NCBI GenBank assembly: GCA_943841885.1
Contig: CALSZZ010000001.1
Span: forward strand, 265,156 to 329,155
Length of the DNA: 64,000 nt
Source of the DNA: Candidatus Thalassarchaeaceae archaeon
GTDB lineage: Archaea > Thermoplasmatota > Poseidoniia > Poseidoniales > Thalassarchaeaceae
Direction of reading: 5' to 3'
The number at the start of each line of letters is the position of its first letter. Position 1 is the first letter of the stretch. Both the position numbers and the translations under genes were made by a program. The notes under the pieces were generated by a model, which worked only from the letters and a program-made list of their open reading frames with translations, did not search any database and was not told the DNA's origin. Shown here one piece after another: positions 187 to 13,079 of this stretch.

Positions 187-1116
187 TTAATGTTGGTCTT
201 CTAGCCATTTTTCTGCATCCATCGCTGCTTGACAACCCATACCGGCAGCAGTTATTGCTTGCCGATATCTAGTATCAACAACATCTCCTGCTGCGAATAT
301 ACCAGGAATGTTTGTCATAGTATATTTACTGGGAACTATATATCCAGATTCATCAGTTTTAATTTGATCTTCTAAGAAATTTGTTATTGGTTTGTGCCCT
401 ATGGCAATAAATGCTCCCGTACAAGAAATTTGTTCTTCGGTATCGTCCCTTGAATCTTGAAGTACTGCACCCACAAGACCTTTATCGTCGGATAGCCATT
501 TCTTGATATTTTTAAAAGTCTTAATCTCAATCTTTGGATGGTTTGCTGCCCTCTCGTACATTACCTTTGATGCCTTGAAAACATCTCTTCTATGAATAAT
601 TGTAACTTTATTAGCGAACCTTGTTAAGAAAGTTGCCTCTTCCATTGCAGAATCTCCTCCCCCAATTACAATTACTTCTTCATCACGAAAAAATGCACCA
701 TCGCAAGTAGCGCAAGTACTTATTCCCCTTCCTTTTTGTTCTTGTTCTCCCTCTGCGCCCAGCCATGTAGATTCAGCCCCAGTACAAATTATTACTGATT
801 TTGACAAGAATAAATCTCCTTCTACCCAAACTTTGAAAGGGCGTTTAGAAAAATCCACACGATCGACATTTTTATCATGTACTTCTAAACCAAATCTCTC
901 TGACTGTTCACGTAATTGTAACATCATTTCTGGGCCTCCAATTCCTTCTGGGTAGCCAGGAAAGTTCTCAATATCGGAAGTAAGCATTAACTGGCCGCCA
1001 GACATATAGCCAGCAAACATCAATGGCTCAAGTAACGCTCTAGCAGAATATAGCCCCGCAGTATATCCTGCAGGCCCAGAGCCTATGATAATCACGTTAC
1101 GCACTACATCGGTCAT
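187..1116 (-). CDS. trxB: thioredoxin-disulfide reductase
   Basis: FAD motif IIGSGPAGYTAG, redox-active CATCDG, NADPH motif GGGDSAMEEA. Start moved to ATG 1116, which has GGAGGG 3 nt upstream; the track ORF extends to 1149. Confidence 0.9.
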   Translation of the reverse strand: MTDVVRNVIIIGSGPAGYTAGLYSARALLEPLMFAGYMSGGQLMLTSDIENFPGYPEGIGGPEMMLQLREQSERFGLEVHDKNVDRVDFSKRPFKVWVEGDLFLSKSVIICTGAESTWLGAEGEQEQKGRGISTCATCDGAFFRDEEVIVIGGGDSAMEEATFLTRFANKVTIIHRRDVFKASKVMYERAANHPKIEIKTFKNIKKWLSDDKGLVGAVLQDSRDDTEEQISCTGAFIAIGHKPITNFLEDQIKTDESGYIVPSKYTMTNIPGIFAAGDVVDTRYRQAITAAGMGCQAAMDAEKWLEDQH

Positions 1117-1162
1117 ATACCCTCCAATATGGGATGTGTTTTTGAACATTAACTTGTAGACA

Positions 1163-1570
1163 TTATTTTAACATTTTAGCTACGGCTTTTACTGCGGCTA
1201 TTGAATGGGGCTTTATTCTTGGAGCGATATGTTCTTTTTTGGCACCAGGACCTATTATTCCAAGACCTATTGGAATATTATATTTTAGTTGTAAATTAAT
1301 TATTGCACTTATGACAGCTTGGCCTATGACTACGCCATGTTGTGTCTCTCCCTCTTCTATAATTCCAAGAGTTACTATACCTTTCAGATTATTCTTTTTT
1401 AGAATCCTATTTACAGTCAGTGGAATTTCCATAACTCCTGGAACCCATTCTATTACTTCCAATTCAAGACCATTGGAAATTAATTCTTCAGAAGCATGAT
1501 GTAACATCATGTCCATTTCTTCTTTATGAAATGATGTACATATTATACCTACTTTCATGATATCACTCAC
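1163..1570 (-). CDS. ribH: 6,7-dimethyl-8-ribityllumazine synthase (archaeal short form)
   Basis: 135 aa. VPGVMEIPL, GIIEEGETQHG and GLGIIGPG follow the lumazine synthase pattern. Overlaps ribE by 8 nt within a riboflavin cluster. Confidence 0.8.
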   Translation of the reverse strand: MSDIMKVGIICTSFHKEEMDMMLHHASEELISNGLELEVIEWVPGVMEIPLTVNRILKKNNLKGIVTLGIIEEGETQHGVVIGQAVISAIINLQLKYNIPIGLGIIGPGAKKEHIAPRIKPHSIAAVKAVAKMLK

Positions 1571-2180
1571 TTATTTTTAATTGTTCTTTCATCATTGAGG
1601 ATACTGTTGTTACAATTGCTTGAGTCATCGAGTCTATTTCTATATTCACCATACTGCCCTCAGTTTTGGAATTAATTGTAGTTCGGCCAATAGTTTCTGG
1701 AATTAAATGTAAGTTGAAAGAATTGGAATTAACTGCTCCTATGGTTAAGCTTATTCCATCAATGGCAATATATCCTTTTTCCATGATAAATGGCTTCAAC
1801 TTTTCATTTAAAGATATTTCAACATCTACTCCTTCTCCATTATTTTTTTTAGATATTACAGATGATGTACACATTATATGTCCCGAAAGAAGATGCCCTC
1901 CCAATTCATCACCTACTTTGAGCGCGCGTTCTAAATTGACCAATCCTCCTTCTTTGACATTTCCAAGTGTTGTGCGTGAGAGAGTTTCTTGGATTACGTC
2001 AAAATAAACTAATGTGTTTTCTTGACTTGTAACTGTCAAGCAGACACCGTCTATTGATACACTTGAACCTAAAGTTAAATTTTTACTTAAATTATCTAGA
2101 TCTATAGAAAAAGTTGAAGATGATATTTTTCGGTCGATGGAGACGATAGTTCCAGTGCCTTGTATGATTCCTGTGAACAT
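1563..2180 (-). CDS. ribE: riboflavin synthase, two-barrel (bacterial/eukaryal) type
   Basis: Canonical N-terminus MFTGIIQGTGTI. The second internal repeat starts at GGHLLSGHI. About 205 aa. Confidence 0.85.
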   Translation of the reverse strand: MFTGIIQGTGTIVSIDRKISSSTFSIDLDNLSKNLTLGSSVSIDGVCLTVTSQENTLVYFDVIQETLSRTTLGNVKEGGLVNLERALKVGDELGGHLLSGHIMCTSSVISKKNNGEGVDVEISLNEKLKPFIMEKGYIAIDGISLTIGAVNSNSFNLHLIPETIGRTTINSKTEGSMVNIEIDSMTQAIVTTVSSMMKEQLKISE

Positions 2181-2642
2181 CTAATCTTCCTCATATGGTC
2201 CGCCTTTTTTACTAGGCCAGATATCTAATATCTTTGCAATAATTTTCCTAGTACCATCTAAATCATCAGAAAGTCCTTCCACCCTAACAACCTCGATATG
2301 CCCAAAACCATGCTCAATTAGTCCTTTCTTTATTGAATCGATTGAATGTTTTTGATCATATCCTAGTGCGATTTTACTTGGCATTACTTTTTCCAATATT
2401 TCAAAGATAGATATTTCAGGAGGATTACCTATTATTGATTCATCAACGGGTTTTAGGCCACCTACCATTCTTCTACGTAAATTATGATTCGTTATAGGCT
2501 CATGTTTACGCTTTCTCACAGTTTCATCATGAGCAACTACAACAATTAATTTATCACCCAACGATTTAGCTTGCTCCAAGTAATGTAAATGACCGGCATG
2601 AAGGAGGTCGAAAACTCCTACTGCCATAACTACGGTAGACAT
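2181..2642 (-). CDS. ribL: FAD synthase, archaeal RibL-type nucleotidyltransferase
   Basis: GVFDLLHAGHLHYLEQAKSLGDKLIVVV cytidylyltransferase-fold motif, about 150 aa, inside the rib cluster. Start moved to the internal ATG at 2642. Confidence 0.7.
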   Translation of the reverse strand: MSTVVMAVGVFDLLHAGHLHYLEQAKSLGDKLIVVVAHDETVRKRKHEPITNHNLRRRMVGGLKPVDESIIGNPPEISIFEILEKVMPSKIALGYDQKHSIDSIKKGLIEHGFGHIEVVRVEGLSDDLDGTRKIIAKILDIWPSKKGGPYEED

Positions 2643-2673
2643 GTAATAAACCCTCCAGTACAACTCATATTTG

Positions 2674-3384
2674 TTAATATATCCCGGATGCGCTCAAAAT
2701 ATCTTCACCGGTTAACATTGGTATTCCATTCTCAATAGAATACTTTCTAGCATCTTCAACTGTTAGCGCACCATCTCCGTCGGGCTGTAACATTTCTGCA
2801 CCAATAGTACAGGCTGGAAGGCCTGCTAGTCGTGCTATTGCAACTGCTAGTTCTGTATGTCCTTGGCGTACTTTAAGTCCCCCTGGCGATTCACGGCATA
2901 ATGGAATATGACCAGGAGTTCTGAACTCTTTACCTAATGCTTTACGAGCATATGATTTATCTGATTTGTTAAAAAATAATTCATCTGTTAACTCTCCAAA
3001 TCTACGCGTAGTCAAAGCTCTATCTTTATCTGTTATTCCCGTGAATGTGTCTCTATGATTTAGTGATAGTGTGAATGCGGATTTTGAGTCATATTTCAGA
3101 TCATCAGTAATTAATTCAGACAGTACCGGATTTTCTTCTACCAATTTAGGATGAGAATGAATATCTTGTAACCAGGGTAATCCGAATAATTCTCCTACTT
3201 CATTTCCTATTGCCAAGAAGAGTAAACCCCCACAATCTTTTCTCAATCTCCTCATTATTCCTGGTGTGGCTGCTGATGCAGGCCATAGTAAGTCGGTTTC
3301 TTGCTCCCTAAATGAAGAGTCGAAAATCATCACTGGCTTACCACTCGAAAACGCCTCAACCGCGGCTTCCACATCAGACACCAT
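2674..3384 (-). CDS. ribB: 3,4-dihydroxy-2-butanone 4-phosphate synthase
   Basis: REQETDL and RQGHTELAVAIARLAG motifs, about 236 aa, riboflavin cluster context. Confidence 0.8.
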   Translation of the reverse strand: MVSDVEAAVEAFSSGKPVMIFDSSFREQETDLLWPASAATPGIMRRLRKDCGGLLFLAIGNEVGELFGLPWLQDIHSHPKLVEENPVLSELITDDLKYDSKSAFTLSLNHRDTFTGITDKDRALTTRRFGELTDELFFNKSDKSYARKALGKEFRTPGHIPLCRESPGGLKVRQGHTELAVAIARLAGLPACTIGAEMLQPDGDGALTVEDARKYSIENGIPMLTGEDILSASGIY

Positions 3385-3459
3385 GAGGGTCGGAGGGAGT
3401 ACTCATACCCATTCTTTTCGGTCGGAAAGTATCAATTTAGAATACCGCTAGCATACCCT

Positions 3460-4335
3460 ATGGTAAAGCGCATAGAGGTCAGAGTCCCTGTCAGAGTAGA
3501 TTTAGCAGGAGGTTGGACTGATGTGCAGCCATTTGCATCTGAATTTGGAGGAGAAGTAGTAAATTTTACTATTGATAAATATATCAAATTCTCAATGGAA
3601 AAGGATGAGCAAGGAAAGAAAAAAGTGGAATACAGAAGTGATGTCCCAACAGGATCAGGATTGGGTACGAGTGGAGCCATGAATGTTGGATTAATAGCCA
3701 CAATAGCTGGAAAAAATAAGACCCCAGAAGATATTGCAGAATTAGCATTCAAATTTGAAGAATTATTGGAAAATAAAGGAGGGAGGCAGGATCAGTGGGC
3801 ATCTGCCAAAGGCGGATTTAATCATTTACTTTTCATTGGAGATCAAGTAGAGCCATTACCATTTGAGCCAATGCGATCTTCAAAAAATTGGTTACATAAA
3901 CATTTCATAATTTTATATTCTGGAATTGAACATAATTCTGGCGCGTTACATGAAGAGGTTTGGAAAAAATATAACGATGGCGATGAGTCGGTTTTAGAGG
4001 GACTACATACAATTAGAAAGGCGGCTAGAATGATGGCAAATGGATTACAACAAGATAGGAGAGAAATCGTTGTAGAGTCACTTAGAGAGGTTTGTAAAGG
4101 AGTAGATATGTTAGATTTGAGAATTCATGCTCCATTTCATTCAAAACTCAAACCGTTAATAGACAGTAAGAAAATTATGGGTTGGAAGGCATTAGGTGCC
4201 GGTGGCGGTGGGTCTGTGGGTTTACTTTGTGCACCTAATAGTAAAGAAATGGTCATTAAAGAATTAGAGAGATTCGGATGGGTAAATATCAATTGGAATT
4301 ATGATGATTTAGGGATTGTAATTGACGAAAAATAG
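3460..4335 (+). CDS. GHMP-family kinase (fucokinase/HddA-like sugar kinase group)
   Basis: N-terminal RVPVRVDLAGGWTDV, GHMP motif II PTGSGLGTSGA, C-terminal GAGGGGS. Substrate cannot be called. Confidence 0.6.
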   Translation: MVKRIEVRVPVRVDLAGGWTDVQPFASEFGGEVVNFTIDKYIKFSMEKDEQGKKKVEYRSDVPTGSGLGTSGAMNVGLIATIAGKNKTPEDIAELAFKFEELLENKGGRQDQWASAKGGFNHLLFIGDQVEPLPFEPMRSSKNWLHKHFIILYSGIEHNSGALHEEVWKKYNDGDESVLEGLHTIRKAARMMANGLQQDRREIVVESLREVCKGVDMLDLRIHAPFHSKLKPLIDSKKIMGWKALGAGGGGSVGLLCAPNSKEMVIKELERFGWVNINWNYDDLGIVIDEK

Positions 4336-4428: not shown

Positions 4429-7400
4429 ATGGTTGGGCGGAGGGCACTATTGGCTAGTTCTCTTATCATGATTTTCATTTTACCATTGGCAACTTCTGCC
4501 ATACTGCCATCTGATAACTCCAGAGGAGGTTTGGATGCCAAAGGAGTATGGACCGAGAGAGTAGAATCTGGAATCCATAATGAATGGTGGTTGGATTGGA
4601 GTAGAGATAAGAATTCAAACAGTATAGACGACAGGATAGAATGGTTACTACAACAGCCCTCTGAAATTCAAAATGAATGGTGGAAAAGAGCCCCCGAAGG
4701 AAGTTCTAGAATATTTGTTAACTTTGATCATCACCCAACTGATGCTGATGTAATCGCAATTGAAGAGTTAGGCGGAGAAGTCACATTTAGGCCAAAACAT
4801 CTTGATAATTTGATAGTTACAATTCCAATAGAAGAAATTACTAGTCATTCAGGGATTTTAACATTACAAGGAGTAGTTATGATTGAAGATTTAGGTTTAG
4901 CAGAACCTAATATGCATGAAGCAGTTCCTAATATGGGCGTAAATAATGTTTGGAATGATTTAGGATTAGACGGTACAGGTTCAACTATTGCAATCTTAGA
5001 TACAGGAGTCAGGGGAGATCACGAAGGATTGAATGACATGGATGACGATCCATTAACTTGTGTAACTGAGCCTCCTAATCCTTTAGATCCTAATCCTCAA
5101 CCAATATCTGATTGTGATCCGAAAATAGTAGCTTTTTATGATGCGGTTTTTACAGATGAAGAGCAAGACCCTTCTACATCTTATGATTCGGGCACACATG
5201 GTAGTCATGTTGCTGGAATTGCTGCAGGAACTGGGGGCGGACAAAGTGATACAGCAACTGGATTAAGATATGTTGGGGCGGCCCCTGGCGCATTTCTTGT
5301 CACGATACTTGCATGTTGTGATGGGGACATAGAAGATATAATCCAAGGCGCACAATGGGCAATGGAAAATAAGGAAAAGCATAGTATAGATATACTTACT
5401 TCGTCCCTTGGAGAACAGCAAATAGAAAATCATATTGATAACGATGGGAGTTCATCATGGAGTAGACAAATGGACTATGTAGTTGAAGCGGGAATTATAA
5501 CTACTTTATCTGCTGGAAATGAGTTCGGCGGAGCGACTTTTGCGGGTTGTAATACCATTGACAGTCCTGGAGATGCAGAACTTCCAGTGACTGTTGGTAG
5601 TTTGGATAAGAACTTGGGATTGGCAATATATAGTAGTAGAGGATATACCTCTGATTTGAGAGTAAAACCTGATGTGGCAGTAATAGGGTCCAGTATAATG
5701 GCACCTGATGCGGCAACTAGTGACGGTTATACTAGTAAATCAGGAACGAGTATGGCAACTCCTTTGATGGCGGGAATAGCGGCATTGATGATACAGGCTA
5801 ACCCTGATTTAACTCCTGAAGAATTTAAAGATATTATCAGAGTAGATTCGATAGAAAGAGAAATAGTATTACTTGATGACCCGGGCTTTAATGATTGTAG
5901 TTTATTAGAAACTAGACCTGATAACGAATTTGGATATGGCCAGGCCGATCCTGTAGCATTTGTGGAATCTGCAGGAAATATAGACCGCTCGCTTAATATT
6001 TCTATGAATATACAAACTCTACAAACCATACACAATGAGAGTTATATTTCTGGAACATCTTCTGGAGCAATTTCAGGCCAAGGAGGAGAAGTACAGGTAA
6101 GAGTAGGAAGTGGCGAATGGAATGGAGCTGCAGACGTAGGAGGAAACGGAGATTGGTCGGAATGGCGAGTGAAACTTCTCCCTCATGAAGAATCAGGAAA
6201 TTCTACAATTTATGCTAGGTTGGTAATCTCAGAAGACAGGATTTCAACTGTTGATGCAAAACGTGTTTTGCTTGTCGATCAAGTTGCTTCAAATATGGGC
6301 GATGATGGCGATTTAATATCAATAGGGTCGTATATATTCTTCATTCCATTCTTCATTGCATTAGCAATTTTGGCCTATGCTGCAATAAGTGAAAGATGGA
6401 TAGATAAACTAGAGAAAAAGGGTGAAATATCTCAAAAAGAAAGTTTTGATATCAACAAATATGATCCGAGAAGATTTCCGCAAGTAATCAGAAACATAGT
6501 TAAGGAGTGGAATAATGGTGCATCATTAATAGAAAATCAATTTAGAAGATTGGTATCTTTATGTGTCCTGTATTTAGCGCAAGGATTACCTGCCGGATTT
6601 ACTTATGTTGCATTTGTAGCATACTTATCTGATAACGGAACTCCTCCGGAAGAAATAGCGATTCTCTTTGCTACAATCGCACTTCCATGGACTTTCAAAT
6701 TCGTATGGGGTCCAGTGATTGATTTACTAGTAATTCCAGAATATGGTAGAAGGAGGCCATGGATCTTATTTGCTCAATCAGGGATGGTGATTTCTCTTGC
6801 AACTATTCTCTTCGTACCTAATATTATAGATAAAATAGCATTAGTCACGATTTTGTTATTCATTCATAATCTATTCTCCTCATTGCAGGATGTGAGTGTA
6901 GATGCTTTGGCTGTTGATGTATTACAGCCCGATGAAGTAGCCAAGGCTAATGGAATGATGTTTGCAACAAAGAGAGGAGGGATAATACTTGGAGGGGCGG
7001 TTTTAGGCATGCTAGTTCCAATGTTTGGTATTAAATTTGTAATAATGATACAAATTCCATTACTAATTTTGATTATGCTATTACCACTATTTTTACGTGA
7101 GAAACCTGAAAATAAGTTATTTCCATGGGATAATTCAAGAGTCGAGAATGATAGTGTCGACGAAGTATTGACTGATTCCAAAGAAGATTTAAATTTAGCA
7201 TGGGAAGAAAATGAAGATTCTAAATTCAGAAGTGCTCGTTGGACTGCAAATAATATATACGAAAATAAAATTAGTATTTCTGCTGCATTATTATGGATTG
7301 GATTAGTGACCTGGATTTTTGGTAGTGGAATAGATATTATTTACCTAATTAGTGAGCCACTTATTGAAGGCATCGTGAAAGAAATTTTTGTAAAATTATC

Positions 7401-8256
7401 CATTATTAGTACTCTTGGAATATATTTGATTATGGCATCTATCTTAATGATAGTTGTAGAAGGTTTCGGGGTTAAATTACCAGAAATTATGAGTCCGTTG
7501 GCATTTTCCCCGTCCAATGCAAAAGTAAATGTTGCCAATACAGCGTATTATATTGTACAAGGATTTTCTACTCGCTCATCATTCTTACTAATATTTTTGT
7601 GTTTACTTTCCGACTTGGCATTATTCGTAGACCCAATAATCGTTGATATTTTCATTAATGAAGCAGGATGGTCACAACAAAAATACAATGCAATACTTGG
7701 AGGAATAGTAGTTTTGTTCACGATGTTGGGGCAAATATTTGGAGGATTTTTGGGAGACAGATATGGAGTCAGAGAAATAGCAATGATTGGATTTACCCTT
7801 CTTGCTCTAGCGAATGCAGGACTAGCATTACTTAATGCATATTGGGAAGATACCACTATCATGACTATTTATTTGTGTATAAAGGCAATAATATACGGAA
7901 TTGCTTGGATATGTGTTATATCAGTATCTATGAGACTTACATATAGTAAAGCAGGAGGAACGCAATTTACTGCATACATGTCAATGTTCAATCTTTCTGC
8001 TGTGCTAGCATATCTCTTTGCCGGGAGGATGATTGCTACTTTTGATTACATAACAATGCTATACATTGGTGCTGCTCTAACCTTAATTTCCGTAATTTTC
8101 TTATTATTCATAGATCCGGATGAGACAGATAGGGTTCTTGAAGGTAGATTTGGAGATGATGATTCAGGAGGAGATTTAGGAGAAAATCTTTGGTTAGAAA
8201 ATGAAGACCCGAAAGATGCCATATTAGTTGGAGGGACAGAAAATGTCACAGCTTAA
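4429..8256 (+). CDS. fusion protein: secreted subtilisin-like S8 protease + TM anchor + AmpG/PAT-type MFS permease
   Basis: Single uninterrupted 1275-aa ORF. Signal-like N-terminus, S8 motifs AILDTGV (D191), SGTHGSHVAG (H257), SAGN (N363), SGTSMATP (S441). TM at aa ~631-653, then a multi-TM domain with LPWTFKFVWGPVID...GRRRPW. Confidence 0.75.
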   Translation: MVGRRALLASSLIMIFILPLATSAILPSDNSRGGLDAKGVWTERVESGIHNEWWLDWSRDKNSNSIDDRIEWLLQQPSEIQNEWWKRAPEGSSRIFVNFDHHPTDADVIAIEELGGEVTFRPKHLDNLIVTIPIEEITSHSGILTLQGVVMIEDLGLAEPNMHEAVPNMGVNNVWNDLGLDGTGSTIAILDTGVRGDHEGLNDMDDDPLTCVTEPPNPLDPNPQPISDCDPKIVAFYDAVFTDEEQDPSTSYDSGTHGSHVAGIAAGTGGGQSDTATGLRYVGAAPGAFLVTILACCDGDIEDIIQGAQWAMENKEKHSIDILTSSLGEQQIENHIDNDGSSSWSRQMDYVVEAGIITTLSAGNEFGGATFAGCNTIDSPGDAELPVTVGSLDKNLGLAIYSSRGYTSDLRVKPDVAVIGSSIMAPDAATSDGYTSKSGTSMATPLMAGIAALMIQANPDLTPEEFKDIIRVDSIEREIVLLDDPGFNDCSLLETRPDNEFGYGQADPVAFVESAGNIDRSLNISMNIQTLQTIHNESYISGTSSGAISGQGGEVQVRVGSGEWNGAADVGGNGDWSEWRVKLLPHEESGNSTIYARLVISEDRISTVDAKRVLLVDQVASNMGDDGDLISIGSYIFFIPFFIALAILAYAAISERWIDKLEKKGEISQKESFDINKYDPRRFPQVIRNIVKEWNNGASLIENQFRRLVSLCVLYLAQGLPAGFTYVAFVAYLSDNGTPPEEIAILFATIALPWTFKFVWGPVIDLLVIPEYGRRRPWILFAQSGMVISLATILFVPNIIDKIALVTILLFIHNLFSSLQDVSVDALAVDVLQPDEVAKANGMMFATKRGGIILGGAVLGMLVPMFGIKFVIMIQIPLLILIMLLPLFLREKPENKLFPWDNSRVENDSVDEVLTDSKEDLNLAWEENEDSKFRSARWTANNIYENKISISAALLWIGLVTWIFGSGIDIIYLISEPLIEGIVKEIFVKLSIISTLGIYLIMASILMIVVEGFGVKLPEIMSPLAFSPSNAKVNVANTAYYIVQGFSTRSSFLLIFLCLLSDLALFVDPIIVDIFINEAGWSQQKYNAILGGIVVLFTMLGQIFGGFLGDRYGVREIAMIGFTLLALANAGLALLNAYWEDTTIMTIYLCIKAIIYGIAWICVISVSMRLTYSKAGGTQFTAYMSMFNLSAVLAYLFAGRMIATFDYITMLYIGAALTLISVIFLLFIDPDETDRVLEGRFGDDDSGGDLGENLWLENEDPKDAILVGGTENVTA

Positions 8257-8512
8257 TGAGCATTTTAAAAAAAGTAAAACTGACTTTTTGATGTTCTCAC
8301 AAACTATCTGTGTTTATTGTTCAATGGCGAAAAGATACTTGAAAAGTAAAGGACTGAGTTATACAGAAATAAATTTGGATCACCATGATGGATTAAGAAG
8401 AGAATTGGTAATGGAAACTGGCCATAGGACTGTTCCAGTACTATTTGACCTTAGAGGAGATGAAATAGTATTTGTCGGCGGTTCTGATAATTTGATAGAA
8501 TACAAATTATGA
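8243..8512 (+). CDS. glutaredoxin/NrdH-like small redoxin
   Basis: CVYC active site, TVPVLF and GG motifs of the thioredoxin fold. ATG 8243 has GGAGGG 7 nt upstream and overlaps the end of the preceding ORF. Confidence 0.75.
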   Translation: MSQLNEHFKKSKTDFLMFSQTICVYCSMAKRYLKSKGLSYTEINLDHHDGLRRELVMETGHRTVPVLFDLRGDEIVFVGGSDNLIEYKL

Positions 8513-8843: not shown

Positions 8844-9728
8844 ATGGACTCAGAACCTCCGGGGTTAAGAATTAAACCTCTGTTTGGAGATGGAGACGGA
8901 GATAAGATTCCAGATATTGAACTTATGGAAGTTAGGACGTTAGGCATTTTTGCAGTTTGGTGGGATAAAAGGTTTGAATGGGAAAGTCGTGCAAATTTTA
9001 TCTTGAAAACTTTATACAAAGTTAGAGAGGATTGTATTAAAAATTTAGGAATGAGTGACCCCAAAAATGTCAGATTGGGTTTTTATCTTAATGTCTACAT
9101 TCATGACTCTGATTTGTATTACTCAGGATCTACAAAAAAAGATGATTTATTCCCAGATAAGTGGTATGCCATGGTTAAAGATAACAGAATGGGTCTACCT
9201 TACATGACTTTACCGTGGCAAGACACAGATGGCGATCTGGTTAGACATGAAGGTTTTCATGTCTTTCAGAATGAATGGTATAGAAAAAGGACAAAACAAT
9301 GGCACGAGTTGGGTTGGTATATTGAAGCATCAGCTAGTTGGTATGCTGCCGATCGTGCAAATCAAAAAGAATCCGTCACTAGTTATGAGAGAGTTCATTT
9401 CATAACAGCAAATCCTCATTTAGCCATATGGCATACAGAACATAATAAGAAAATTGGCGATCCAAATGAAAAAGAGCTTAATCAACGTCAATATGCTTTG
9501 GAATGTTATTTGTTCTTTCTTTGTGAGGTATGTAATGTTCCAAAAAATATTATAACTGATATATTTAAAATAAAGGATAAAGTAAATCCTGCAGAATACC
9601 TGTTTAGAAAGATTGGAAGTCAAAATTTACGTGAATTTTTTACATACTGGGCTGCTTGTAACACGGATGATTTTAGTTATCTTTCCAACGTACAAAAAAA
9701 AATTTATAGATATACAAAGGTGGAATAG
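8844..9728 (+). CDS. putative HExxH zinc metallopeptidase (MA-clan-like)
   Basis: HEGFH followed about 22 aa later by WYIEASASWY, a candidate third ligand Glu. No signal peptide. Family not identified. Confidence 0.4.
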   Translation: MDSEPPGLRIKPLFGDGDGDKIPDIELMEVRTLGIFAVWWDKRFEWESRANFILKTLYKVREDCIKNLGMSDPKNVRLGFYLNVYIHDSDLYYSGSTKKDDLFPDKWYAMVKDNRMGLPYMTLPWQDTDGDLVRHEGFHVFQNEWYRKRTKQWHELGWYIEASASWYAADRANQKESVTSYERVHFITANPHLAIWHTEHNKKIGDPNEKELNQRQYALECYLFFLCEVCNVPKNIITDIFKIKDKVNPAEYLFRKIGSQNLREFFTYWAACNTDDFSYLSNVQKKIYRYTKVE

Positions 9729-9833
9729 TAAAAAAATCTGTGTTAAATCAATTGGTTCTTTAGATGGAGTTCAAGGAATTTAAAAATAGGAGATTCAAAC
9801 GAGAATATTATTTTCCATCCAACGGAGAAATTA

Positions 9834-10175
9834 ATGCCTAGAGGCTGGTCATATAATGTTCTAGAATTAAAGAATGATTACGGAGGAAAAGGAAAGTATG
9901 AATTTAAATTGGAAGGTGATGCTTTTGGAAGTGAGGGAGCACCGTCATACTTTTCAGGAAGAGTGTTGATTAAAAAAAATTGGAGTGCTTACCGGGAGAG
10001 AAGAAGAATTACTGAACATGTACCCTTCATAATGAGTGGAGGCATTGGAGGTAGAGCGTCAATCGTAGCAGATCGGGGTGATTTGATTTATGTCATTATT
10101 GCCTCAGTACCTGAGTATTTTACAAGTAATCAAACATACAATTACAGACTAACTTTCAGCAAAAAAGAAATCTAA
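9834..10175 (+). CDS. hypothetical protein (beta-rich, 113 aa)
   Basis: ATG with GGAG 8 nt upstream. Same frame as the preceding ORF, separated from it by TAG, TAA and TAA. Confidence 0.35.
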   Translation: MPRGWSYNVLELKNDYGGKGKYEFKLEGDAFGSEGAPSYFSGRVLIKKNWSAYRERRRITEHVPFIMSGGIGGRASIVADRGDLIYVIIASVPEYFTSNQTYNYRLTFSKKEI

Positions 10176-10189
10176 ATTCATTATCTTCT

Positions 10190-10306
10190 TCGACCGCCAC
10201 CGGATCTACCGCCGCCACCGGATCTTCTACCGCCGCCACCGGATCTACCGCCGCCACCGGATCTTCTACCGCCGCCACCGGATCTACCGCCGCCACCGGA
10301 TCTTCT
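10190..10306. repeat. GC-rich tandem repeat, 39-bp period x3 (18-mer ACCGCCGCCACCGGATCT x5 plus one 15-nt copy, with TCT after every second unit)
   Basis: Read directly: units at 10193, 10208, 10229, 10247, 10268 and 10286. On the minus strand it encodes SGGGGR/RSGGGGR repeats ending at TAA 10181-10183. Confidence 0.9.
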
Positions 10307-10313
10307 ACTCCCT

Positions 10314-11729
10314 CTAGGCCTTCCTCCACCACTTTGAACGGCTCATCGCCCTCCTTCCTCTTCTTCCTGATGAAGATCTATGAAAATGACGTCTTCGCCT
10401 GAAATAACCATATGGCCTGTAAAATGGGCGATAATACCAAGGTCCAGTGAAAGGAGGCATTCCTTCATAGCCGCCATATCCTTGATCTCCTCCTTGGAAA
10501 CCTACTTGTTGGTCATAATTTGAGAAACGGACATAAATAAATGATATTAATAAAAATATTATCAATAATAACATGCAACAAAATAATTCATCAACAGTAA
10601 ACTTATTAGGATGTATTTCAGCTGATTCGGAAGGATTTTCTGGATTAACATATACCTGAACTACGGATTCTATTGGGTATTGGCCTTCTATATCACTAAT
10701 ACAAGGAGTATTGGACGAAATGGATGAGGTAGAGAATGAGCCAGTATAACTTGTTTCCACTGCAGAACCAGAAGAGTATGTATAAGAATATAATAAATCA
10801 GCATAACATGAATAATATAGATAAATATCATAAGAATCTGCAGGAAATAGTAATATTTCATTCCAAACTGTTCCTGAAGGAGATCCATGAGAAATAGCAA
10901 AAACCTGATAGTCGGAATGATCATTTAAGTTTACTTCAATAGACACATTATCCCCTATTTGGAAATAAAATTCTATGTCTTCCAAACAAGGCCACTCGCC
11001 CGATATTTCTGGAGTATATTGCCAATTAATATAAGAAACTCCATCTAAAGAATATGATAAATTTAGATCGGCATAACATACGAAATAATCATACCATTCG
11101 GTGTATGTATCACAATATTCATCTCCATAATCATCATAATAACAGTCCTCATACGTGTATGATCTTTGTGATACATCTTCGAACCACCCTGTTTCATTTT
11201 CTATAGTAGCATTTATTTCCATCCACTGAATGTCATCTGAACCAATCAATTTAGCATCAGTTAACTCCCAATCAACTTGATTAGTGAACTGATATGTCAT
11301 CAATATTGATGACCCGATTGTCAATATTAGCGCGATAGAAACGAAAATCAATTCACCTGGAGATAACCAATTAGGTAGTGAAAAACTAGTTTGTTTTACA
11401 ATTTCTTCGTCTTCTCCTGATTTTAAATTATTCAAATTGTTATTTCCCATTGGATTTTTTATTTTTGGAATGTTTGATGATTCTGAGTTAATTAAATTAC
11501 CATCAGGTCCAACTTCAGGAATTCCTAAGCCCGGGCCATTTACGGCATCAGATGTAAGATTTTGAAGCTGTGATATTTTTAATTTATGTTCCGCTTCTGC
11601 AATTTCTTCCTCTCTTTGTAGTCTTTTTTTCTCGGCCTCATTCAACAAATCATTAATTTCTTCTTTTGGAGATTTTTCTTCTTCATCGGCTGAATTCCAC
11701 CATTTGTCATCTTCCATAAGTATTCTCAT
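10314..11729 (-). CDS. two-TM membrane protein with duplicated Cys/Tyr/Asp-rich ectodomain (DUF3592-like) and R/G/Y-rich tail
   Basis: Acidic coiled-coil-like N-terminus. TM helices LIFVSIALILTIGSSILMTY and LFCCMLLLIIFLLISFIYV. Internal repeat CYADL..SY...PC..DIE..V.V..N appears twice. Tail reads GGDQGYGGYEG...RRRRHFHRSSSGRRGRR. Confidence 0.6.
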   Translation of the reverse strand: MRILMEDDKWWNSADEEEKSPKEEINDLLNEAEKKRLQREEEIAEAEHKLKISQLQNLTSDAVNGPGLGIPEVGPDGNLINSESSNIPKIKNPMGNNNLNNLKSGEDEEIVKQTSFSLPNWLSPGELIFVSIALILTIGSSILMTYQFTNQVDWELTDAKLIGSDDIQWMEINATIENETGWFEDVSQRSYTYEDCYYDDYGDEYCDTYTEWYDYFVCYADLNLSYSLDGVSYINWQYTPEISGEWPCLEDIEFYFQIGDNVSIEVNLNDHSDYQVFAISHGSPSGTVWNEILLFPADSYDIYLYYSCYADLLYSYTYSSGSAVETSYTGSFSTSSISSNTPCISDIEGQYPIESVVQVYVNPENPSESAEIHPNKFTVDELFCCMLLLIIFLLISFIYVRFSNYDQQVGFQGGDQGYGGYEGMPPFTGPWYYRPFYRPYGYFRRRRHFHRSSSGRRGRRAMSRSKWWRKA

Positions 11730-11822: not shown

Positions 11823-13079
11823 ATGACAGAAGATGAAAGATTACACTTTGACCCAAAGATGCTAGATATAATGGCCGAAGTATGCATTAAATTTGGTTTA
11901 AATTTACAAAATGGACAAGATTTAATTATTACTTCTACTGTAGAATCGCTGCCTCTTGTCAGAAGGATTGTAGAGGAGGCATATCGAGCGGGAGCAGGAG
12001 TTGTGACTACTCTATTATCAGACGAAGAAATAAGTCTAGCAAAGTACAGGTATGGTAACGAAGAAAGTTTCGATAGAGCTCCTGAATGGATGTTCAAGGG
12101 GATGGCAGAAGCGTTTGGGAATAATACTGCTCGTTTGGCAATTTCAGCTGATAATCCAATGTTATTGTCTGGTCAAAATCCAGAAAGAGTTTCGAGATTA
12201 GGTAAGGCGATGTCTATTGCATCTAAACCCGCCATGGAAAAAATAACAAATTTTGAAACTAATTGGAATATAGTATCATATCCAGGTAGTAAATGGGCCA
12301 AGCAAGTATTTCCAGAATTATCAGAAGAAGATGCGGTTAAAAAACTAGCAGAGGCTATTTTTTCTGCTTCTAGAATTAATGGAAAAGATCCCATTAGCGA
12401 ACTGAGAGAGCATCATTCGAATCTCAAAAAGCGACAAAAGTGGTTAAATGATTATTCATTTAAATCGTTACACTACACTGGACCTGGTACAGATTTAATT
12501 ATTGGCTTAGCGGATGGACATGCCTGGAAAGGAGGAGCAAGTATGGCCAAGAATGGCATTATTTGCTCACCGAATATTCCAACTGAAGAAGTATTTACTA
12601 CTCCTCACGCGGATCGGGTTGATGGTTATGTTAAAGCTACGAAACCGCTTGTTTACAGAGGCACATTGATTGAAGATATTGAAGTACGGTTTGAGAAGGG
12701 GAAAATAGTAGAAGCAAGAACATCATTAGGAGAGGAAGTTTTTCTTCAGATGTTAGAAACTGACGATGGTTCTAGAAGGTTGGGCGAGGTAGCATTAGTA
12801 CCTCATTCATCTCCAATCTCCCAATCTGGAATTCTATTTTATAACACACTATATGATGAAAATGCCGCATGTCATATTGCACTTGGGCAATGCTATTCAA
12901 AGTGTTTTATAGAAGAGATTAGTTTGGACAAGGAAGCAGTTAAGAAATCTGGTGGAAATAGTTCAATGATACACGTTGATTGGATGATTGGGTCAGGAGA
13001 ACTAGATATAGATGGTATAACTCCTGATGGAGATATTGTACCAATTTTTAGGAATGGAGAATGGGCAGAAGAAATGTAG
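11823..13079 (+). CDS. aminopeptidase, M29 (AmpS/PepS/aminopeptidase T) family
   Basis: 418 aa. EVALVPHSSPISQSGILFYNTLYDENAACHIALG and SMIHVDWMIG are typical of M29 thermophilic metalloproteases. Confidence 0.8.
   Translation: MTEDERLHFDPKMLDIMAEVCIKFGLNLQNGQDLIITSTVESLPLVRRIVEEAYRAGAGVVTTLLSDEEISLAKYRYGNEESFDRAPEWMFKGMAEAFGNNTARLAISADNPMLLSGQNPERVSRLGKAMSIASKPAMEKITNFETNWNIVSYPGSKWAKQVFPELSEEDAVKKLAEAIFSASRINGKDPISELREHHSNLKKRQKWLNDYSFKSLHYTGPGTDLIIGLADGHAWKGGASMAKNGIICSPNIPTEEVFTTPHADRVDGYVKATKPLVYRGTLIEDIEVRFEKGKIVEARTSLGEEVFLQMLETDDGSRRLGEVALVPHSSPISQSGILFYNTLYDENAACHIALGQCYSKCFIEEISLDKEAVKKSGGNSSMIHVDWMIGSGELDIDGITPDGDIVPIFRNGEWAEEM

Follow-up and report, generated by a model that had tools for sequence, protein, structure and literature searches.

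A subtilase fused to a PAT/AmpG-type MFS transporter in Marine Group II archaea: a candidate digest-and-import protein

Within the window (the whole stretch of 64,000 nucleotides that was analysed, to which all coordinates refer), a single ORF (4429..8256, + strand, ATG start, 1275 aa) encodes, in this order, a predicted signal peptide, a putative Tk-SP-like propeptide, a complete S8 subtilase, a beta domain, a single transmembrane helix (TM0), a cytoplasmic linker and a 14-helix PAT/AmpG-type MFS transporter. The analysis thereby confirms the one-ORF fusion of subtilase and transporter that an earlier note on this DNA had described. We read the protein as a single-polypeptide digest-and-import unit for peptides in Marine Group II (MGII) archaea, with a probability that we put at about 0.5. 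In the surface ocean, MGII rank with the most abundant microbes not yet in culture, and they are believed to feed on protein. A conserved protease-permease fusion would represent a concrete answer to the question how single-membrane, free-living cells retain the products of their outside enzymes; it would further provide a marker by which the use of protein by archaea could be traced in metagenomes and metatranscriptomes, and it would add a new transporter design principle, namely an ecto-enzyme that covalently feeds a secondary carrier. GenBank labels the protein either "hypothetical protein" or "MFS transporter", and genome surveys of MGII list extracellular peptidases and transporters separately, without mention of the fusion (PMC6864105, PMC6336850).

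Results

Conservation of the fused frame

The junction between the two halves lies inside one ORF in all 80 species-representative loci of Poseidoniales (MGII), which stem from independent MAGs and single-cell genomes, and it is split in none of them; 75 of these loci hold the whole protein in one ORF, and the remaining five end at contig ends yet still cross the junction. Full-length fusions form at least 120 protein clusters (63-100% identity) drawn from independent assemblies (NCBI, JGI, ENA, Tara, Logan), and related S8-MFS genes were found in 191 species-representative genomes. In DNA of ~37% GC, a chance origin of a 1275-codon open frame is impossible. That the fusion is an artefact, two neighbouring genes having been merged by loss of a stop codon, by a frameshift or by chimeric joining, has the unusual architecture as its only argument and can be rejected with near certainty on the unsplit loci, the independently assembled clusters, the smooth composition across the S8/MFS junction and the in-frame length changes of the linker (16 distinct lengths, 17-86 aa across species). 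The survey of fused versus split forms in MGII thus bears out the earlier statement that the frame is no accidental read-through. The DNA itself is of MGII origin, in line with the earlier note, which had named MGII/MGIII genomes for such a survey.

The features of the gene and of its downstream neighbour are:

4429..4500, +: predicted signal peptide, aa 1-24 (MVGRR, hydrophobic core, ATSA)
4501..4938, +: N-region (aa 25-95) and putative I9-like propeptide (aa 96-170)
4939..5943, +: S8 catalytic domain, aa 171-505
4999-5001, 5197-5199, 5518-5520 and 5749-5751, +: catalytic codons D191, H257, N364 and S441, in canonical motifs
5944..6303, +: beta-rich C-terminal domain of the protease, aa 506-625
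6304..6330, +: external tether, aa 626-634
6331..6390, +: TM0, single helix running from outside to inside, aa 635-654
6391..6537, +: cytoplasmic linker, aa 655-703, with an amphipathic helix at ~680-694
6538..7089, +: MFS N-bundle, TM1-6, aa 704-887, with motif A and D821/D825
7090..7275, +: acidic cytoplasmic central loop, aa 888-949
7276..7464, +: two-helix hairpin between the MFS bundles (TMa 950-975, TMb 982-1012; AF2, pLDDT 80-90)
7513..8106, +: MFS C-bundle, TM7-12, aa 1029-1226 (AF2)
8107..8256, +: acidic cytoplasmic tail, aa 1227-1275, and stop codon
8228..8512, +: glutaredoxin-like gene (CVYC), overlapping the 3' end of the fusion

The protease half

The S8 domain is covered by Peptidase_S8 (Pfam PF00082, aa 182-504, E 2.5e-44, 152 bits versus a 21.8-bit cutoff, full profile 1-288), and among solved structures Tk-SP of Thermococcus kodakarensis (PDB 3afg, E 4e-40) is its best relative. 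The catalytic residues follow the order Asp-His-Ser, with an oxyanion Asn, and none of the four varies among 19 diverse homologues. The earlier note had placed D191, H257 and S441 correctly, whereas its oxyanion Asn, N363, was off by one, the actual residue being N364. The signal-like N-terminus (RR, hydrophobic core, ATSA) is likewise present, at a position conserved in homologues. Between it and the putative propeptide lies an N-region that is rich in Trp and contains a DxDxN-type loop. Inhibitor_I9 gave no Pfam match in the fusion protein; the family profile aligns with the Tk-SP propeptide, starting at chain residue 40 of 3afg. What had been described as a beta-rich spacer corresponds to aa ~506-625, with strands in the AF2 secondary structure; the domain is jelly-roll-like, as in Tk-SP, gives a weak CBM_6 match (Pfam), and is included in the profile alignment to the S8 peptidase 8jmw. 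The dN/dS values are ~0.06 for N-region plus propeptide, 0.016 for the S8 core and 0.066 for the beta domain. Tk-SP, itself archaeal, consists of propeptide, subtilisin domain and C-terminal beta domain, the order that is also seen here if the putative propeptide is counted; however, it is soluble and secreted, whereas in the fusion a stretch of ~10 residues links the beta domain to a membrane helix, with the transporter behind it.

Membrane anchor and transporter half

The segment that includes the external tether (aa 616-634) stays at 17-20 residues in 75 species. TM0 (hydropathy 2.45, dN/dS 0.128) had been recognised as a single helix, but it spans aa 635-654 (residues 25-44 of the AF2 model) rather than aa 631-653. 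The linker (dN/dS 0.226) does carry positive charge next to the membrane; with 10 K/R and 9 D/E in 49 aa, however, it is not K/R-rich overall, as had been claimed. In the AF2 model of the membrane module, 15 TM helices are arranged as 1+6+2+6 (pLDDT 78, pTM 0.77), and K+R are distributed 26 inside to 6 outside. The topology put forward earlier is therefore self-consistent, with the protease outside and the N-terminus of the MFS inside. The full-length AF2 model, at a pLDDT of 46, is unusable for placing the active site relative to the mouth of the transporter.

The MFS half starts at nt 6538 (aa 704) and belongs to the PAT / AmpG-AT1-BT1 clade (TC 2.A.1.25 and relatives). Pfam assigns MFS_1 from aa 711 (E 7e-30, 104-116 bits) and Acatn at aa 711-838 (E 1e-8, 34 bits versus a 23.7-bit cutoff). 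The best NCBIfam match is the AmpG family TIGR00901 (aa 706-1226, 137.9 bits, below the 350-bit cutoff), the equivalog models NF008867 and NF008238 reach 75 and 58 bits versus cutoffs of 656 and 756, BT1 (folate-biopterin) matches are found in homologues, and RhtX/FptX siderophore models also match the MFS. By sequence and fold, the nearest solved relatives are AmpG, the anhydromuropeptide permease of the PAT family (profile E 8e-21; alignment to 9j9z over the whole MFS; TM-score up to 0.84 on the target), and SLC33A1. Pfam, NCBIfam and the PDB sequence and fold relatives hence uphold the assignment of both halves. The proton-coupled POT/PTR importers of peptides (PepTSt, DtpB), whose bacterial members also have an HA/HB hairpin between the bundles, are only generic MFS fold matches (target-normalised TM-score of 0.56-0.62 for PepTSt/PepTSo), and the sequence family is PAT/AmpG, not POT.

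When the MFS half was mapped onto the residue list of E. coli AmpG (PMC11568325), K62, W65, P67, D70, R79/R80 and W83 were found to be kept as the invariant K757, W760, P762, D765, R775/R776 and W778, and the acidic pair D125/D129 as the invariant D821/D825. Motif A (G-x-x-x-D-x-x-G-x-R) between TM2 and TM3, G761..D765..G773-R775-R776, is invariant in the 19 homologues. The disaccharide-binding Y59, K132 and Y152 of AmpG, in contrast, align with W754, A828 and K848. Since motif A and the acidic pair are kept while the sugar-contact residues are replaced, the comparison suggests the same engine as in AmpG with a different substrate. Differences extend to the architecture: the C-terminal TM13/TM14 of AmpG, which form a hydrophobic vestibule, are absent from the fusion, which ends 49 residues past TM12 and instead has the central hairpin and an extra N-terminal helix. 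The acidic central loop noted earlier (15 D/E versus 9 K/R; 60-71 aa across species) is present, and so are the extra TM segments behind it, i.e. the hairpin at aa 950-1012, which evolves fast (dN/dS 0.21) and is absent from sister clade D. The tail (15 D/E in 49 aa) carries the motif FIDPDE.DRVLEGR, conserved in the homologue alignment.

As judged from sequence conservation, both halves are working parts under strong constraint, since catalytic and motif A residues are invariant and dN/dS is 0.016 for S8 and 0.022/0.032 for the N- and C-bundles of the MFS, as compared to 0.13-0.23 for anchor helix, linker and hairpin.

Related fusions

The architecture turns up repeatedly. Another clade of S8-MFS proteins shares 41-43% identity with the present one and differs from it in synteny, and an M28 aminopeptidase is joined to a sister MFS. 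An unrelated MFS bears an S8 head that closely resembles the one described here; identity is 59% over 817 aligned residues and, by eye, much greater within the S8 half. In bacterial-looking relatives, a likely 13th helix precedes domains that are GH63-like or 3-keto-disaccharide-hydrolase-like. A sister clade with the same TM0 and MFS bears a bona fide type-1 copper (blue-copper) domain as well as two uncharacterised heads of ~200 aa; these forms outnumber the M28 form among the matches listed. The chassis is thus not reserved for hydrolases, and a hydrolase that feeds an importer is not the whole story. Forms with a cupredoxin and those with an uncharacterised head have neighbouring genes in common, suggesting that heads have been exchanged at a single locus.

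Discussion

If the fusion works as a digest-and-import unit, its N-terminus would be exported by Sec, and the propeptide would chaperone the folding of the subtilase before being removed. The mature endopeptidase and its beta domain would then be held at the cell by the ~10-residue tether, TM0 and the fused transporter, and would cleave protein, whether dissolved or in particles, at the surface of the cell. Oligopeptides freed nanometres from the membrane would be taken up by the proton-coupled permease of the same polypeptide, with cytoplasmic peptidases completing the degradation. Such kinetic coupling would limit the diffusion loss of hydrolysis products for a single-membrane cell without periplasm in dilute seawater.

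The transporter class fits a peptide-sized cargo, as its nearest solved relatives are AmpG, which imports disaccharide-peptides by H+ symport, and SLC33A1. The latter moves acetyl-CoA out of the cytosol into the ER lumen, so that family membership does not give the direction of transport, and inward movement of peptides is what we infer here. The idea of coupling gains support from the equally strong constraint on both halves, from M28 on a sister MFS and from the S8 head on an unrelated MFS, whereas it is weakened by the blue-copper domain and the uncharacterised heads on the same chassis. It has also to be considered that fragments released by an S8 endopeptidase may be too large for carriage by an MFS, and that the protease could be shed through cleavage in the tether. 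MGII are regarded as degraders of protein and peptides, and the extracellular peptidases ascribed to them include S8 and M28 (PMC6864105, PMC6336850).

In a literature search, we found neither a paper on an S8-MFS fusion nor a characterised example of one, in agreement with the earlier note. The lack of a precedent nevertheless has to be put more cautiously, since in Acinetobacter baumannii the periplasmic domain of AmpG1 binds the lytic transglycosylase Slt non-covalently and thereby couples cleavage with import (PMC13507758). There, the enzyme is a separate protein, whereas in the fusion it is a covalently attached protease in an archaeon without murein. Peptidase-containing ABC transporters (PCATs) also combine a peptidase (C39) and a transporter in one polypeptide and couple cleavage to transport; however, their peptidase is cytoplasmic and their transporter a primary-active ABC exporter of bacteriocin precursors, whereas in the fusion the protease lies outside and its partner, a secondary carrier of the MFS type, probably acts as an importer. 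Mycosin (MycP) of type VII secretion resembles the fusion in having an outside S8 domain with a C-terminal helix beside a transport machine (NCBIfam mycosin model, 8e-16, 58 bits versus a 279-bit cutoff), but it forms a subunit of its own in a protein-secretion complex, with no small-molecule carrier joined to it.

In a wider and somewhat more tentative interpretation, the protein belongs to a modular Poseidoniales family in which heads (S8, M28, cupredoxin and uncharacterised folds) are joined via one helix to a PAT-type MFS and hand a product made or captured outside directly to the carrier. If this holds, the S8 form would be the first known covalent machine of ecto-protease and secondary importer, and would provide cells without a periplasm with a minimal device for the 'selfish uptake' of protein.

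One could also imagine that the N-terminus of the MFS together with TM0 serves Poseidoniales as an all-purpose chassis on which ectodomains are presented at the cell surface, and that the MFS is a carrier for a cofactor, pterin, flavin or metal chelate to which the co-located protease is not functionally coupled. The diversity of heads, the swapping that their shared neighbours suggest and the BT1 and RhtX/FptX matches all speak for this, as does the kept synteny with riboflavin/FAD genes (ribB in 75/80 loci, FAD synthase in 71/80). The rib genes, however, are divergently oriented housekeeping genes, and synteny within one order is weak evidence. Moreover, TM0 by itself would be enough for anchoring, so that mere display would not need the 14-helix fusion, which has yet been kept through the 16 changes of linker length; and the independent joining of the S8 head to an unrelated MFS points to a value of having subtilase and permease together. 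We thus regard this explanation as unlikely.

Less likely still is an archaeal counterpart of AmpG-based wall recycling, in which the subtilase trims or matures the cell's own S-layer or secreted proteins and the MFS recovers the (glyco)peptides. AmpG is itself a recycling importer (PMC11568325), subtilases that are anchored in the membrane and act on secreted proteins are known, as the mycosin match recalls, and a short, fixed tether would hold the enzyme at the cell surface. The gene also looks core rather than accessory, given the 191 genomes and the housekeeping neighbourhood shared in the 80 loci. However, S-layer or secretion genes are not conserved nearby in these 80 loci, the sugar-binding residues of AmpG are lost, and MGII hold several such fusions with different heads; self and foreign substrates are not distinguished by any of the evidence.

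The same core-like character argues against the MFS exporting a peptide or other precursor that the outside protease then matures, similar to NisT/NisP or the peptidase-containing ABC exporters. The S8 leader peptidases of lantibiotic systems do work outside the cell, peptidase-transporter fusions are known among exporters (PCATs), and the direction of an MFS cannot be read from its sequence. Nevertheless, precursor-peptide or modification genes are not conserved in the 80 loci, the closest characterised prokaryotic relatives, AmpG and RhtX/FptX, are importers, and the M28 and glycoside-hydrolase-like heads on relatives fit nutrition better, which makes export very improbable.

The gene neighbourhood speaks against the digest-and-import reading, since genes of peptide catabolism are not among the conserved neighbours in the 80 loci, where riboflavin/FAD and glutaredoxin genes are found instead; an M29 aminopeptidase gene lies 3.5 kb downstream, but no more than two of the loci conserve it. 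The glutaredoxin-like gene (Pfam Glutaredoxin, E 7e-15) lies downstream in 73/80 loci and is probably a co-transcribed neighbour, its membership in the system being uncertain. A further glutaredoxin copy, 53% identical, adjoins the M28-MFS paralogue.

One open reading frame for a subtilase and a permease

At 4429-8256 (+), the window carries one ATG-started ORF of 1275 codons in which Pfam recovers both the peptidase and the transporter that the earlier note had read from the sequence: Peptidase_S8 is complete at aa 182-504 (E 2.5e-44), MFS_1 starts at aa 711, and Acatn covers aa 711-838. Among NCBIfam models, TIGR00901 for the AmpG family ranks first (aa 706-1226), with 138 bits that lie well under its 350-bit cutoff. 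All parts that the note had listed along the ORF are present, with coordinates that agree within a few residues; of its catalytic set, D191, H257 and S441 stand, whereas the asparagine is N364 and not N363. The base composition is smooth over the S8/MFS junction, and the window contains no further copies of the S8 or MFS domain.

Tk-SP of Thermococcus kodakarensis (PDB 3afg, E 4e-40) is similar to the protease half and has its parts in the same order, namely propeptide, subtilisin and C-terminal beta domain; the profile of the fusion family also aligns to the Tk-SP propeptide. For aa 611-1275, an AlphaFold2 model from 46 sequences of three clades (mean pLDDT 78, pTM 0.77) gives the following helices.

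Membrane helices in the AlphaFold2 model
aa 635-654: TM0, the single helix between beta domain and cytoplasmic linker
aa 704-887: TM1-6
aa 950-975 and 982-1012: TMa and TMb, the hairpin inserted between the MFS bundles
aa 1029-1226: TM7-12

Fifteen helices put the N-terminus outside and the C-terminus inside, as the MFS requires, and with the protease placed outside, 26 K+R residues are cytoplasmic versus 6 outside. With these counts, the topology proposed earlier, with the protease out and the MFS N-terminus in, is self-consistent. A full-length model (aa 25-1224, 33 close homologues; mean pLDDT 46) leaves the S8 domain unfolded and is used for secondary structure only.

Conservation of the fusion

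A homologue search covering ~5.8 billion proteins yielded homologues that are fused over their full length in at least 120 clusters (1262-1316 aa, 63-100% identical), which originate from NCBI, JGI, ENA, Tara and Logan assemblies. With one genome per GTDB species, relatives were found in 191 genomes, and among the best 80 loci, which were examined, the nearest to the window's protein is that of MED-G38 (97%). These loci belong to MAGs or single-cell genomes of the Poseidoniales (Marine Group II, MGII), except for one contig filed in a bacterial bin. Both domains lie end to end in a single ORF in 75 of them; in the remaining five a contig end cuts the ORF, but the junction is still crossed, and no split S8/MFS orthologue occurs among the 80. 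Across 75 species, the cytoplasmic linker takes 16 lengths between 17 and 86 aa without ever breaking the frame, and the external segment from the beta domain to the membrane helix is constant at 17-20 residues.

The fusion is real and is maintained by selection. That it is an artefact can be rejected on account of the number of fused clusters, the 80 loci that read across the junction and the in-frame linker lengths, and its probability is negligible. The same loci and lengths uphold the earlier argument against accidental read-through, and in the 80 loci the proposed survey of fused versus split orthologues came out entirely on the fused side.

Entries of the S8 form with a named source carry no other label than Thalassarchaeaceae or Poseidoniales; the sister clade, i.e., related MFS proteins with other heads, includes a Poseidoniaceae (MGIIa) entry. 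Two distinct S8-MFS loci per MAG were seen in two cases (L012/L027 in UBA181, L053/L055 in TMED192), which could be true paralogues or result from mixed bins; paralogues would agree with the 1-4 S8 copies per MGII MAG of a published count.

Selection and transporter type

Pairwise dN/dS (73 pairs, 0.15 < dS < 1.2) amounts to 0.016 for the S8 core, 0.022 for the MFS N-half and 0.032 for the MFS C-half, and to 0.128 for TM0, 0.211 for the hairpin and 0.226 for the linker. Since the MFS values stay low, unlike those of the drifting TM0 and hairpin, the MFS does not appear to be kept merely as an anchor, and by this measure both halves would be working parts.

In sequence and fold, the closest solved structures to the MFS half are AmpG and then SLC33A1/AT-1. 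Residues were mapped with the E. coli AmpG catalogue (PMC11568325) and a profile alignment.

Elements of AmpG and their counterparts in the MFS half
Extended motif A: AmpG K62, W65, P67, D70, R79/R80, W83; here K757, W760, P762, D765, R775/R776, W778; kept, invariant
Proton-linked acidic pair: AmpG D125, D129; here D821, D825; kept, invariant
Disaccharide contacts: AmpG Y59, K132, Y152; here W754, A828, K848; replaced
Extra helices: AmpG C-terminal TM13/14; here central hairpin and TM0; different

By sequence and fold, the transporter is a member of the PAT/AmpG-AT1-BT1 branch within the MFS and probably works through the proton-driven latch of AmpG; by the curated threshold as well as by its predicted binding site, it is not an AmpG. 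At AmpG K235/E336 the two charges seem to be exchanged, acidic for basic and vice versa, but this is not relied on, as the alignment is of low confidence there.

Related architectures

To collect relatives, the transporter half was searched exhaustively and domain scans followed. A second S8-MFS clade (41-43% identical, 1164-1200 aa, at least 50 clusters, one member labelled Thalassarchaeaceae) has a different gene neighbourhood. In some proteins (P0442 type), the S8 head closely resembles that of the second clade as far as residue ~595 (the whole alignment, of 817 residues, has 59% identity), but thereafter the helix differs and the MFS is a generic, unrelated one. The S8-MFS junction in these proteins is an independent one. 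In one such case (L084, 217-4022) a Peptidase_C26/GATase gene comes next with a 7-nt overlap, and its product may be a cytoplasmic partner of the fusion.

The Poseidoniales sister clade follows the same plan, with signal peptide, head, TM0, acidic linker and MFS. An M28 aminopeptidase or a plastocyanin-like type-1 copper domain serves as the head, or else a ~200-aa domain of one of two types. Cupredoxin heads with the Cu ligands H...C-x-P-H-x-x-M sit on TM0 plus MFS in many Poseidoniales proteins (P0128, P0297; L087 5001-6935). The two ~200-aa ectodomains (P0290/P0336 and P0341/P0353 types; L089, L090) gave no match in Pfam at E<=5 or in a PDB sequence search. One of these types and the cupredoxin-fused form both have an LTD protein and a ~990-aa protein as neighbours, so that heads may have been swapped at one locus. 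Bacterial-looking relatives carry one extra hydrophobic helix past TM12 and then an added domain (P0148, 3-keto-disaccharide-hydrolase-like; P0217, GH63-like with F5/8-type-C; P0185, FG-GAP), which, by hydropathy only, looks like a mirror-image way to place a domain outside.

Possible function

From our point of view, the most economical reading of the fusion is the digest-and-import module proposed in the earlier note, to which we assign a probability of about 0.5: protein would be cleaved at the cell surface by the tethered endopeptidase, and the resulting peptides would enter through the fused permease, with both substrate and direction being presumed. This reading fits the short fixed tether and the equally strong constraint on the two halves. 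It also fits the heads, which are peptidases (S8 in two independent cases, and M28) and, in relatives, hydrolases, as well as the size of the cargo that the transporter family carries and the accepted protein-degrading lifestyle of MGII. A functional precedent within the same transporter family is AmpG1 of A. baumannii, whose periplasmic domain binds the lytic transglycosylase Slt and thereby couples cleavage to import non-covalently (PMC13507758).

What speaks most against a pure hydrolase-importer logic are the cupredoxin heads, which, like the unknown heads, do not fit a rule by which a hydrolase feeds an importer. One could hence imagine the MFS as a platform that displays heads and carries some unrelated cargo, which these heads would suit; we consider this unlikely. 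Also against digest-and-import, what is conserved around the fusion gene is riboflavin/FAD genes plus a glutaredoxin rather than peptide catabolism. A role in envelope maintenance and recycling appears more doubtful still, and export-and-process is very improbable; a small remainder of the probability falls to none of these readings.

In surveys of MGII, S8 and M28 count as extracellular peptidases, and no transporter fused to them is mentioned (PMC6864105, PMC6336850). Each part is ordinary, and the sequences are already public under automatic labels, such as "subtilisin family serine protease/MFS family permease" (JGI pipeline, some homologues) or "MFS transporter" (among the GenBank labels of the window's own protein). 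In the literature outside subscription-only papers, no description or test of such a fusion, S8-MFS or otherwise protease-permease, was found for MGII or for archaea generally, in line with the earlier note, which knew of no characterised example. Known enzyme-transporter couplings (PCATs, AmpG1-Slt, mycosin) differ in side, energy source or covalency. The ecological relevance is high, since the host lineage is globally abundant.

Gene neighbourhood

Features around the fusion gene
187-4335: upstream block of thioredoxin reductase-like, ribH-like, riboflavin synthase-like and FAD synthase-like genes, ribB and a GHMP-family kinase (ribB and kinase Pfam-confirmed, other names read from translations)
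8228-8512 (+): glutaredoxin-like gene (CVYC), overlapping the 3' end of the fusion ORF
8844-10175 (+): 294-aa ORF with an HEGFH (zincin-like) motif and no Pfam match (8844-9728), then a 113-aa ORF
10314-11729 (-): DUF3592 membrane protein
11823-13079: M29 aminopeptidase

Next to the fusion gene, ribB is found in 75, FAD synthase in 71 and the GHMP-family kinase in 57 of the 80 loci, and the glutaredoxin lies downstream in 73. A 53%-identical glutaredoxin (CPYC; L085 7536-7790) adjoins the M28-MFS paralogue; among the forms looked up, none adjoins the cupredoxin-fused form or either unknown-head form. A solved structure of SLC33A1, from the same MFS branch, contains oxidised glutathione, and together with the glutaredoxin neighbour this may indicate thiol/disulfide handling of imported cargo.

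A peptide-catabolism neighbourhood formed by the M29 aminopeptidase and the HEGFH ORF was rejected because these are kept in just 2-3 of the 80 loci. The HEGFH and 113-aa ORFs, present in only three, are a variable island immediately after the conserved block. The DUF3592 protein ends in an extremely Arg/Tyr/Gly-rich tail, and its gene coincides with a GC peak of 0.478 at 10001-10500 in surroundings of ~35% GC.
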